A stretch of DNA of 64,000 bases from Escherichia coli (lineage in GTDB: Bacteria; Pseudomonadota; Gammaproteobacteria; Enterobacterales; Enterobacteriaceae), in NCBI RefSeq assembly GCF_003334815.1, contig NZ_QOWO01000003.1; one strand, written 5' to 3'. This document shows positions 20,447 through 21,138 of the stretch, one piece after another. Numbering within the stretch: position 1 is the stretch's first letter; the number at the start of each line of letters is the position of its first letter. The notes beneath the pieces are model-generated. The model did not search any database. It was not told the DNA's origin and saw only the letters and a list, made by a program, of their open reading frames with translations. The position numbers and the translations under genes were made by a program.

Positions 20447-21020
20447 AATAGAAACTCATTCGAAAAGGGAATGATGCAATGATAATTGCCACAACCTATT
20501 TTTACCATCTATAGATGGGTTTATTTACATATTATTGGTGAATGCAAGACGTTATTTTTACCAGCCATAAACTTCTTGATTACATAGTATTACGAAAGGA
20601 TTTTACTGAGAACCAGAAGTAATATTCCTTACCATCAAAATTCATCATCTTTGCCAAAGAAAAATGTTCAGAAAATAATCCATGGAAAATTGTCCGGAGC
20701 ACTTACTATTTTAATGGATTGTTAGTCTTTGCATGAGCAAGCGAACTGATACATTTCTCTTTGTTCTCATTCAGAAAATCTCATCAGTCGCCGTTCAGAC
20801 CGGTGTTGTGCTTTATGGATGCGTTACGCTCCTGATGACGTCATTTGACGTTCAACAGCATCACGGGGCCGCACGACATTTCACGTCAGTTAGTGCTATA
20901 GCTCAGGAACAAATTTTCCCGAATTGGGATATGCCCGCAAATTGCTGGTGATGTGGGGAGAATCTGGTTGAGTTCGGTAGAATTGATTTGGAGGCAGAAC
21001 GCTTAAATCGTGGCGTCCTG

Positions 21021-21050
21021 AAACGAAAAACGGACCTCCGTGGAGGTCCG
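21021..21050 (-). terminator. intrinsic terminator of pheU
   Basis: cggacctccg/tggaggtccg hairpin followed on the minus strand by a U-run, just 3' of the tRNA. Confidence 0.75.
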
Positions 21051-21062
21051 TTTATATGAATT

Positions 21063-21138
21063 TGGTGCCCGGACTCGGAATCGAACCAAGGACACGGGGA
21101 TTTTCAATCCCCTGCTCTACCGACTGAGCTATCCGGGC
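21063..21138 (-). tRNA. pheU: tRNA-Phe (GAA)
   Basis: Reverse complement reads GCCCGGATAGCTCAGTCGGTAGAGCAGGGGATTGAAAATCCCCGTGTCCTTGGTTCGATTCCGAGTCCGGGCACCA, 76 nt with encoded CCA. Confidence 0.95.

Follow-up and report, generated by a model that had tools for sequence, protein, structure and literature searches.

The tRNA gene pheU is a textbook hot spot for genomic islands, and the rebuilding of the tRNA 3' end by P4-like elements on integration is an established mechanism. In the literature, the interval yjdC-pheU-cadC is the standard site for papGII PAIs and for the LEE. One paper describes a single gene for the integrase in both the pheU and the pheV PAIs, and attR repeats of 19-23 bp have been reported for the islands at the sister site pheV. 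The integrases named intP4 in papers on these islands share the architecture Arm-DNA-bind_3/Phage_int_M/Phage_integrase. In strain 12009, the LEE lies beyond attR of GI-pheV, which represents tandem accretion at one tRNA (PMC11537424). For E. coli K-12, a published genome and strain comparison gives no mobile element at pheU.

Here we analyzed the pheU-cadC site in a 64-kb stretch of E. coli DNA, referred to below as the window. The sequence-only reading of this DNA had described tRNA-Phe genes as frequent island targets, which the published islands at pheU bear out. Our own reading, held with high confidence, is that the pheU site is now free of a mobile island and carries the fossil of a much older P4-type integration. 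The core of this relic is already known through the annotation of yjdQ, and in this respect the finding is ordinary. Added here are the complete outline of the relic, which takes in N-terminal codons, dead start codon, spacer and hairpin, and a junction common to Escherichia lineages.

The pheU-cadC interval and its integrase relic

Over the 5,001 bp surrounding the pheU site, the window and MG1655 were 100% identical; left of the site, the two differed by one mismatch and one gap over 21.2 kb. Judged by these alignments, the window is essentially E. coli K-12. Elsewhere, at 50872-51059, the window contains two tandem tRNA-Gly(GCC) genes versus three in MG1655 (glyV, glyX and glyY). One repeat unit of about 112 bp is missing, which could reflect either recombination between the repeats in the strain or a collapse in the assembly.

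The gene pheU, b4134 in MG1655, lies at 21063-21138 (minus strand). Both ARAGORN and Rfam (RF00005, 68.3 bits against a gathering score of 29) identified a cloverleaf tRNA with the anticodon GAA, that is, tRNA-Phe(GAA). The context dicD(yjdC)-pheU-cadC, present in the ORF list and in the annotation, sets this gene apart from pheV. With a permissive threshold, tRNA was the only Rfam family found. The 3' end of pheU points to lower coordinates, toward cadC (18908-20446, minus strand; ORF list and annotation). The spacer between the two genes, 20447-21062, is 616 bp long and has 39.6% GC, matching the earlier description of about 600 bp of AT-rich sequence before cadC.

Translated searches of this spacer uncovered pieces of an integrase. 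The K-12 protein IntB and the integrase of the pheU island in O145:H28 strain RM12581 were each aligned to the 616-bp spacer by tblastn with E about 8e-10. IntB residues 334-366 matched 20865 to 20782 and residues 372-395 matched 20780 to 20709, in two frames. In addition, the sequence MALTDAKIRAA of the island integrase matched IALTDVKCRAA at 20899 to 20867, with E of 0.02. Taken alone this 11-codon N-terminal match is weak, and it becomes convincing only through its collinearity with the flanking DNA homology. The N-terminal piece directly abuts the C-terminal piece, and DNA alignments to the RM12581 pheU-island integrase and to K-12 intB back both of them. The RM12581 integrase used for comparison contains the domains Arm-DNA-bind_3, Phage_int_M and Phage_integrase and matches PHROG 1, integrase. 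The indel-repaired 62-aa peptide of the relic matched no family among the PHROG profiles, probably because this peptide is short and X-masked.

The segment 20703-20899 (minus strand) is an internally deleted, frameshifted P4-family integrase gene. Codons 1-11 are located at 20867-20899 (minus strand), with the start codon changed from ATG to ATA. After about 12 codons, the relic jumps to codon ~333 (codons ~12-333 are gone), and the last ~62 codons, corresponding to IntB residues 334-395 by DNA alignment and tblastn, occupy 20703-20865 (minus strand). Relative to the intact genes, the C-terminal piece has a +1 insertion, a 16-bp deletion and a 14-bp deletion. The 16-bp deletion takes out the VRAAY codons, including that of the catalytic tyrosine, and a CAG has turned into TAG just ahead of the original TAA. 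With only codons 1-11 and ~334-395 kept, the set of arm-binding, central and catalytic domains is incomplete; the reading frame is interrupted, and neither the start codon nor the catalytic tyrosine of a functional integrase is left. The ORF list of the window contains no intact integrase ORF. The relic is a pseudogene, not a functional member of the P4 family, and cannot work as a recombinase.

Existing annotations cover part of this object. The MG1655 pseudogene yjdQ (b4654; 4362191-4362353, minus strand) corresponds to window positions 20703-20865 on the minus strand, and RefSeq/PGAP describes the identical sequence as a pseudogene, [quoted passage not shown]. A full-text literature search under the name yjdQ returned nothing. 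Since the genome comparison gives K-12 pheU as empty, the relic has been overlooked in practice even though it is annotated.

The homology to island DNA extends beyond the coding sequence on both sides. The relic starts 163 bp past the tRNA end on the same strand, so that int lies directly 3' of the tRNA and in the same orientation. The segment from the tRNA to int, 20900-21062 (minus strand), was recognized by BLAST and alignment to the RM12581 island as a relic of the attL-side arm and the int upstream region. The pheU-to-int-start interval of RM12581 aligned to window positions 21062 to 20906, hairpin included, with 82.8% identity counting gaps (BLAST) and about 90% at aligned bases; the window has deletions of 22 bp and 12 bp. 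On the cadC side, 20655-20702 (minus strand) aligned to the 3' flank of intB and contains a degraded copy of its hairpin. This homology (71% identity over 66 nt) covers ~50 bp, reaching about 20655 and no further. The remaining segment, 20447-20654 (minus strand), is the cadC upstream region with the presumed promoter and 5' UTR; it is devoid of island homology and gave no matches when compared with integrase-bearing loci.

These results bear on whether the site could be a truly virgin attB, never occupied, with a spacer of ordinary intergenic DNA in which strings resembling an integrase arose by chance. Such a site would be consistent with the lack of an intact integrase ORF and of a direct repeat, and with the published comparison that gives no mobile element at pheU in K-12. 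However, the two tblastn pieces (E about 8e-10) are collinear, the tRNA-to-int spacer is about 83-90% identical to modern island DNA, the curated and automatic pseudogene annotations agree, and the type of hairpin tracks integrases across genera. A never-used site is refuted by the translated and DNA alignments to integrases, and we give it practically no credence. The sequence-only reading had seen no integrase at this site, which holds for an intact ORF and fails for P4-family pieces, found here at E about 8e-10 and E 0.02. It had also named a translated match to an integrase of the P4 family as a sign of a decayed island remnant, and this is the match that tblastn and the DNA alignments produced.

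Present occupancy of the site and age of the relic

Across 5,426 complete E. coli genomes, a query spanning the relic, pheU and dicD was contiguous in 3,738 (69%), as it is in the window. In an even sample of 60 rows down the ranking, 17 stopped on the cadC side at 21085 (one at 21111). Position 21085 lies 23 nt into the tRNA, and the last 23 nt of pheU, 21063-21085 (minus strand), at the edge of which occupied genomes break, represent the core (attB) reused by present-day islands. Most of the genomes in which the query is not contiguous have an island lying between pheU and a repeat of ~23 nt. One such island is found in RM12581. Here pheU is followed by the island's own integrase, split by IS600, and by 47.6 kb of island DNA carrying espL2, nleB, nleE, efa1/lifA and Ag43. 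At the far end of the island there is a 22/23-nt copy of the tRNA end, and then come the hairpin, the relic and cadC. This order implies that new islands insert between pheU and the fossil, leaving the scar beside cadC.

In the window, the intact tRNA is contiguous with the flank that occupied strains have beyond their island, as expected of an unoccupied attB. No second copy of the 23-nt tRNA 3' end was found at up to 3 mismatches in the 64-kb window, and in an ungapped search of positions 1-21062 for a decayed repeat, the best matches were no better than those in shuffled sequence. The flanking direct repeats of a present-day island are missing from the window, and the window carries no present-day island at pheU. 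The earlier claim that the tRNA 3' end has no direct repeat is confirmed down to this level. Its description of the site as unoccupied is right insofar as no present-day island is present and the arrangement is the contiguous one of 69% of genomes, and wrong insofar as it suggested a clean or never-used site.

The relic-containing spacer was present in at least 5,218 of the 5,426 complete E. coli genomes and also in other Escherichia lineages. It is near-universal in E. coli and does not show the variable presence of a present-day mobile island. One may still ask whether the relic is a strain-level scar, left over from a recent island that the K-12 lineage lost through a deletion or by excision. 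Islands at pheU are often gained and lost, and for CC95 one paper suggests that an island may have been excised and re-integrated between the two sites pheU and pheV. Nevertheless, the relic spacer is found in at least 5,218 genomes, the relic is kept at the distal end of modern islands, and the same deletion junction occurs in other species-level lineages of Escherichia. A recent loss is very improbable on this evidence.

The age of the fossil was assessed from the other lineages. Both the relic and cadC follow pheU in E. whittamii (L008), in Escherichia sp. E1V33 (L009) and in a divergent 'E. coli' (L010). In a four-way alignment of these sequences with the window, the large deletion has brought the same N- and C-terminal pieces together in each of them. 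Since this junction is common to E. whittamii and two other Escherichia lineages, the scar is ancient. The small indels of the relic are lineage-specific. The 16-bp deletion of the catalytic tyrosine occurs only in the window and in E1V33, and a 23-bp piece upstream of int is kept only in the divergent 'E. coli', which also has a 28-bp deletion of its own. The overall pattern fits one ancestral inactivation followed by independent decay. In E. albertii NBRC 107761 (L013, 10759-11438), a hairpin of the island type comes after the tRNA, and the start of int is dead, its ATG having become CTG. This locus keeps more N-terminal int codons than E. coli, the sequence next to them is unrelated, and the contig stops 680 bp beyond the tRNA. 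Either the large deletion is younger than the split from E. albertii, or the relic in E. albertii is independent.

On the other side of pheU, E. whittamii has a 671-aa ORF between dicD and pheU (L008, 10644-12659). The gap between these two genes is ~1.5-2.1 kb in E. whittamii, Escherichia sp. E1V33 and many Enterobacteriaceae, and 106 bp in E. coli. An upstream neighbor of pheU has apparently been lost in E. coli.

The persistence of the relic across Escherichia lineages might also suggest that it has been co-opted, either as a small protein (yjdQ or a 72-aa antisense ORF) or as a regulatory or H-NS-binding platform for cadC. The AT-rich composition (39.6% GC), the location directly upstream of the cadC control region, and the integrity of the 72-aa ORF in E. 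coli and Escherichia sp. E1V33 would agree with such a role. By contrast, the indels in the relic segments are lineage-specific and amount to 9-45 gap columns between lineages, compared with 0 in the 208 bp next to cadC, a segment in which substitution levels are only slightly below those of the relic segments. Moreover, both reading frames are broken in some lineage, Rfam yielded no family beyond the tRNA, and no sigma-70-like promoter match was found on the cadC strand. We consider co-option quite unlikely. The 72-aa ORF (20733-20951, plus strand; ORF list) runs antisense to the integrase relic. In E. whittamii a frameshift leads to a stop after 43 codons, and in the divergent 'E. coli' the ORF is mostly deleted. 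We regard it as a spurious antisense reading of the relic, in keeping with its earlier description as dubious.

The cadC upstream region was single-copy, with a median of one place per genome, and was present in 5,268 of the 5,426 genomes. The other 158 complete genomes gave no match to 20447-20660, which points to loss of the cad-lysU block in some lineages. In some strains, an IS1 lies inside the pheU-cadC spacer. Sigma-70 scans of the spacer gave no promoter match on the cadC strand, and a literature search for the cadC promoter returned only unrelated papers (on a cadmium sensor and others) and no cadC start site. The cadC promoter would lie in the non-island 208 bp at 20447-20654.

The terminator hairpin and the proposed history of the site

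A terminator scan located a hairpin of the island type, AAACGGACCTCCACGGAGGTCCGTTT followed by a T run, at 21028-21053 (minus strand, running from 21053 to 21028), within the tRNA-to-int spacer relic. The modern RM12581 island has the very same hairpin as the window, CGGACCTCCACGGAGGTCCG, and part of it can be recognized at leuX-intB. For comparison, 80 loci were gathered by anchoring on DicD, with one genome per species. In most other genera, tRNA-Phe is immediately followed by a different, well-conserved intrinsic terminator, GAACCCGCC..GGCGGGTTTTTGCTTTT, which written in full is CTATTyAAAGAACCCGCC..GGCGGGTTTTTGCTTTT or a close variant. A gapped local search found no such native terminator in the window. 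An integrase or relic followed the island-type hairpin in 7 of the 8 evaluable loci, whereas an integrase followed the native type in 1 of 47 (Fisher exact p = 3e-7); the pattern-based classification of hairpins behind these counts is fuzzy, and one locus, that of E. coli E69 (L012), was mis-binned as native. Because the island-type hairpin tracks integrases and the native pheU terminator of other genera differs from it, the hairpin at 21028-21053 is island-derived and not the ancestral terminator of pheU, whose function it would now perform. The sequence-only reading had the tRNA followed by its own terminator. A hairpin with a T run is indeed in place there; it is of the island type and not ancestral.

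Two loci of Citrobacter amalonaticus showed further arrangements downstream of tRNA-Phe. Strain S646 (L015, 6010-6070) has an island-type hairpin after the tRNA and no integrase match within 1.5 kb, and it may represent another integrase-less scar, in a different genus. In the other locus (L024, 4629-5149), the native pheU terminator element is repeated four times in tandem downstream of the tRNA, with a spacing of ~161 bp.

From these data we infer the following order of events. First of all, an element bearing a P4-type integrase would have recombined into the 3' end of pheU. Assuming that this element rebuilt the tRNA 3' end as other P4-like elements do, it would have brought in a new 3' end for the tRNA, followed immediately by a terminator hairpin of its own and by int, read in the direction of the tRNA. 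Then int would have died: one deletion would have taken codons ~12-333, and later small indels would have removed the catalytic tyrosine and broken the frame. The remainder, ~20655-21062, would be inert for recombination, with its hairpin now serving pheU as terminator. The regenerated 23-nt tRNA end would still be a working target, where modern islands would land between pheU and the old scar. No distal repeat (attR) survives in the window to mark the original extent of the old element.

The practical weight of the relic is small, as it is already in the K-12 reference annotation. Nevertheless, tRNA sites that serve as 'empty' baselines in surveys may hold island-derived DNA, which at pheU includes the presumed working terminator of the tRNA, and such DNA has a bearing on the definition of attB, attR and island boundaries. 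At the same time, the relic offers a fixed landmark for the cadC-side boundary of every modern pheU island.

The cad-lysU block and comparison with known systems

The block of ~10.2 kb between the relic and yjdJ (window ~10874-20446) comprises ghoST, lysU, dtpC, cadA, cadB and cadC. It is conceivable, and on balance somewhat doubtful, that this block is domesticated cargo of the ancient pheU island. Had the block come with the integrase, E. coli would owe a core acid-stress module to an island: the lysine-decarboxylase acid-response system would have arrived by site-specific integration at pheU and then become fixed in the genus.

Several observations speak for such cargo. The dead int lies at the end nearest the tRNA and is oriented in the canonical way, and the ancestral pheU terminator is absent from the window. 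Both ends of the block are AT-rich (40-42% GC for cadC and the ghoST ends, compared with 47-50% for cadBA, dtpC and lysU), and the far end carries a toxin-antitoxin pair. Outside Escherichia, the block is missing downstream of pheU, and cadC was found within 10 kb of pheU in no sampled genus. The genes found downstream of pheU vary strongly from genus to genus. In Enterobacter, yjdF comes directly after the native terminator downstream of pheU, and proP lies 1-4 kb from pheU in Kosakonia, Phytobacter and E. soli, compared with 30 kb in E. coli. In E. coli E69 (L012, CP089930.1), homology to the window breaks off right where the tRNA ends and resumes at the yjdJ end, window position 10873, and this genome is without precisely ghoST-lysU-dtpC-cadABC and the relic. 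Instead, a 2.65-kb restriction-modification cassette occupies the pheU 3' end, followed by a native-type terminator just before yjdJ (L012, 10759-13492).

On the other hand, no attR survives in the window, the block has no boundary repeat, and ordinary rearrangement near a hot spot gives the same picture and is an adequate alternative to the cargo reading. We also considered E69 as the ancestral empty state and downgraded it, as its yjdJI region is 88.5% identical to the window, compared with 97.5% on the dicD side, and the locus is laden with islands.

The E69 locus has further features of its own. The cassette contains a 219-aa ORF and a 386-aa ORF resembling C5 DNA methyltransferases (GGPPCQPFS motif), and the displaced native-type pheU terminator is preceded by GGCACTA. 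Past yjdJI-like genes, at 14031-19947, a 1,322-aa serine-protease autotransporter of the SPATE type and a 276-aa regulator of the AraC family replace dcuSR. The pheU-distal region of this locus is pathogenicity-island-like.

Compared with described systems, the relic is the same object as yjdQ (b4654) of MG1655. The yjdQ annotation covers only the C-terminal 163 bp, whereas the relic described here extends to the N-terminal 11 codons with their dead start codon, to the spacer between tRNA and int, and to the hairpin. The relic resembles the P4-family (intP4/CP4-type) integrases of the pheU and pheV islands in sequence, in its place 3' of tRNA-Phe, in orientation, in the spacer and in the hairpin. 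It differs from them in having lost about three quarters of the gene, the start codon, the frame and the catalytic tyrosine codons.

Within the same genome, intB (b4271) at leuX, belonging to PR-Y/KpLE2, is likewise a degenerate P4-type integrase next to a tRNA. The hairpin after the leuX tRNA and the 3' flank of intB are recognizably related to those of the pheU relic. However, intB is nearly full length (397 codons) and heads a recognizable cryptic element, whereas the relic at pheU retains ~73 codons and heads no recognizable element. The arrangement in strain 12009 (PMC11537424) offers a parallel for the order of insertions. There, as at pheU, the new element enters the regenerated tRNA end and the older one comes to lie beyond the repeat. 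The older element of strain 12009 is a second large island, whereas at pheU it is a fossil of ~400 bp fixed in the genus.
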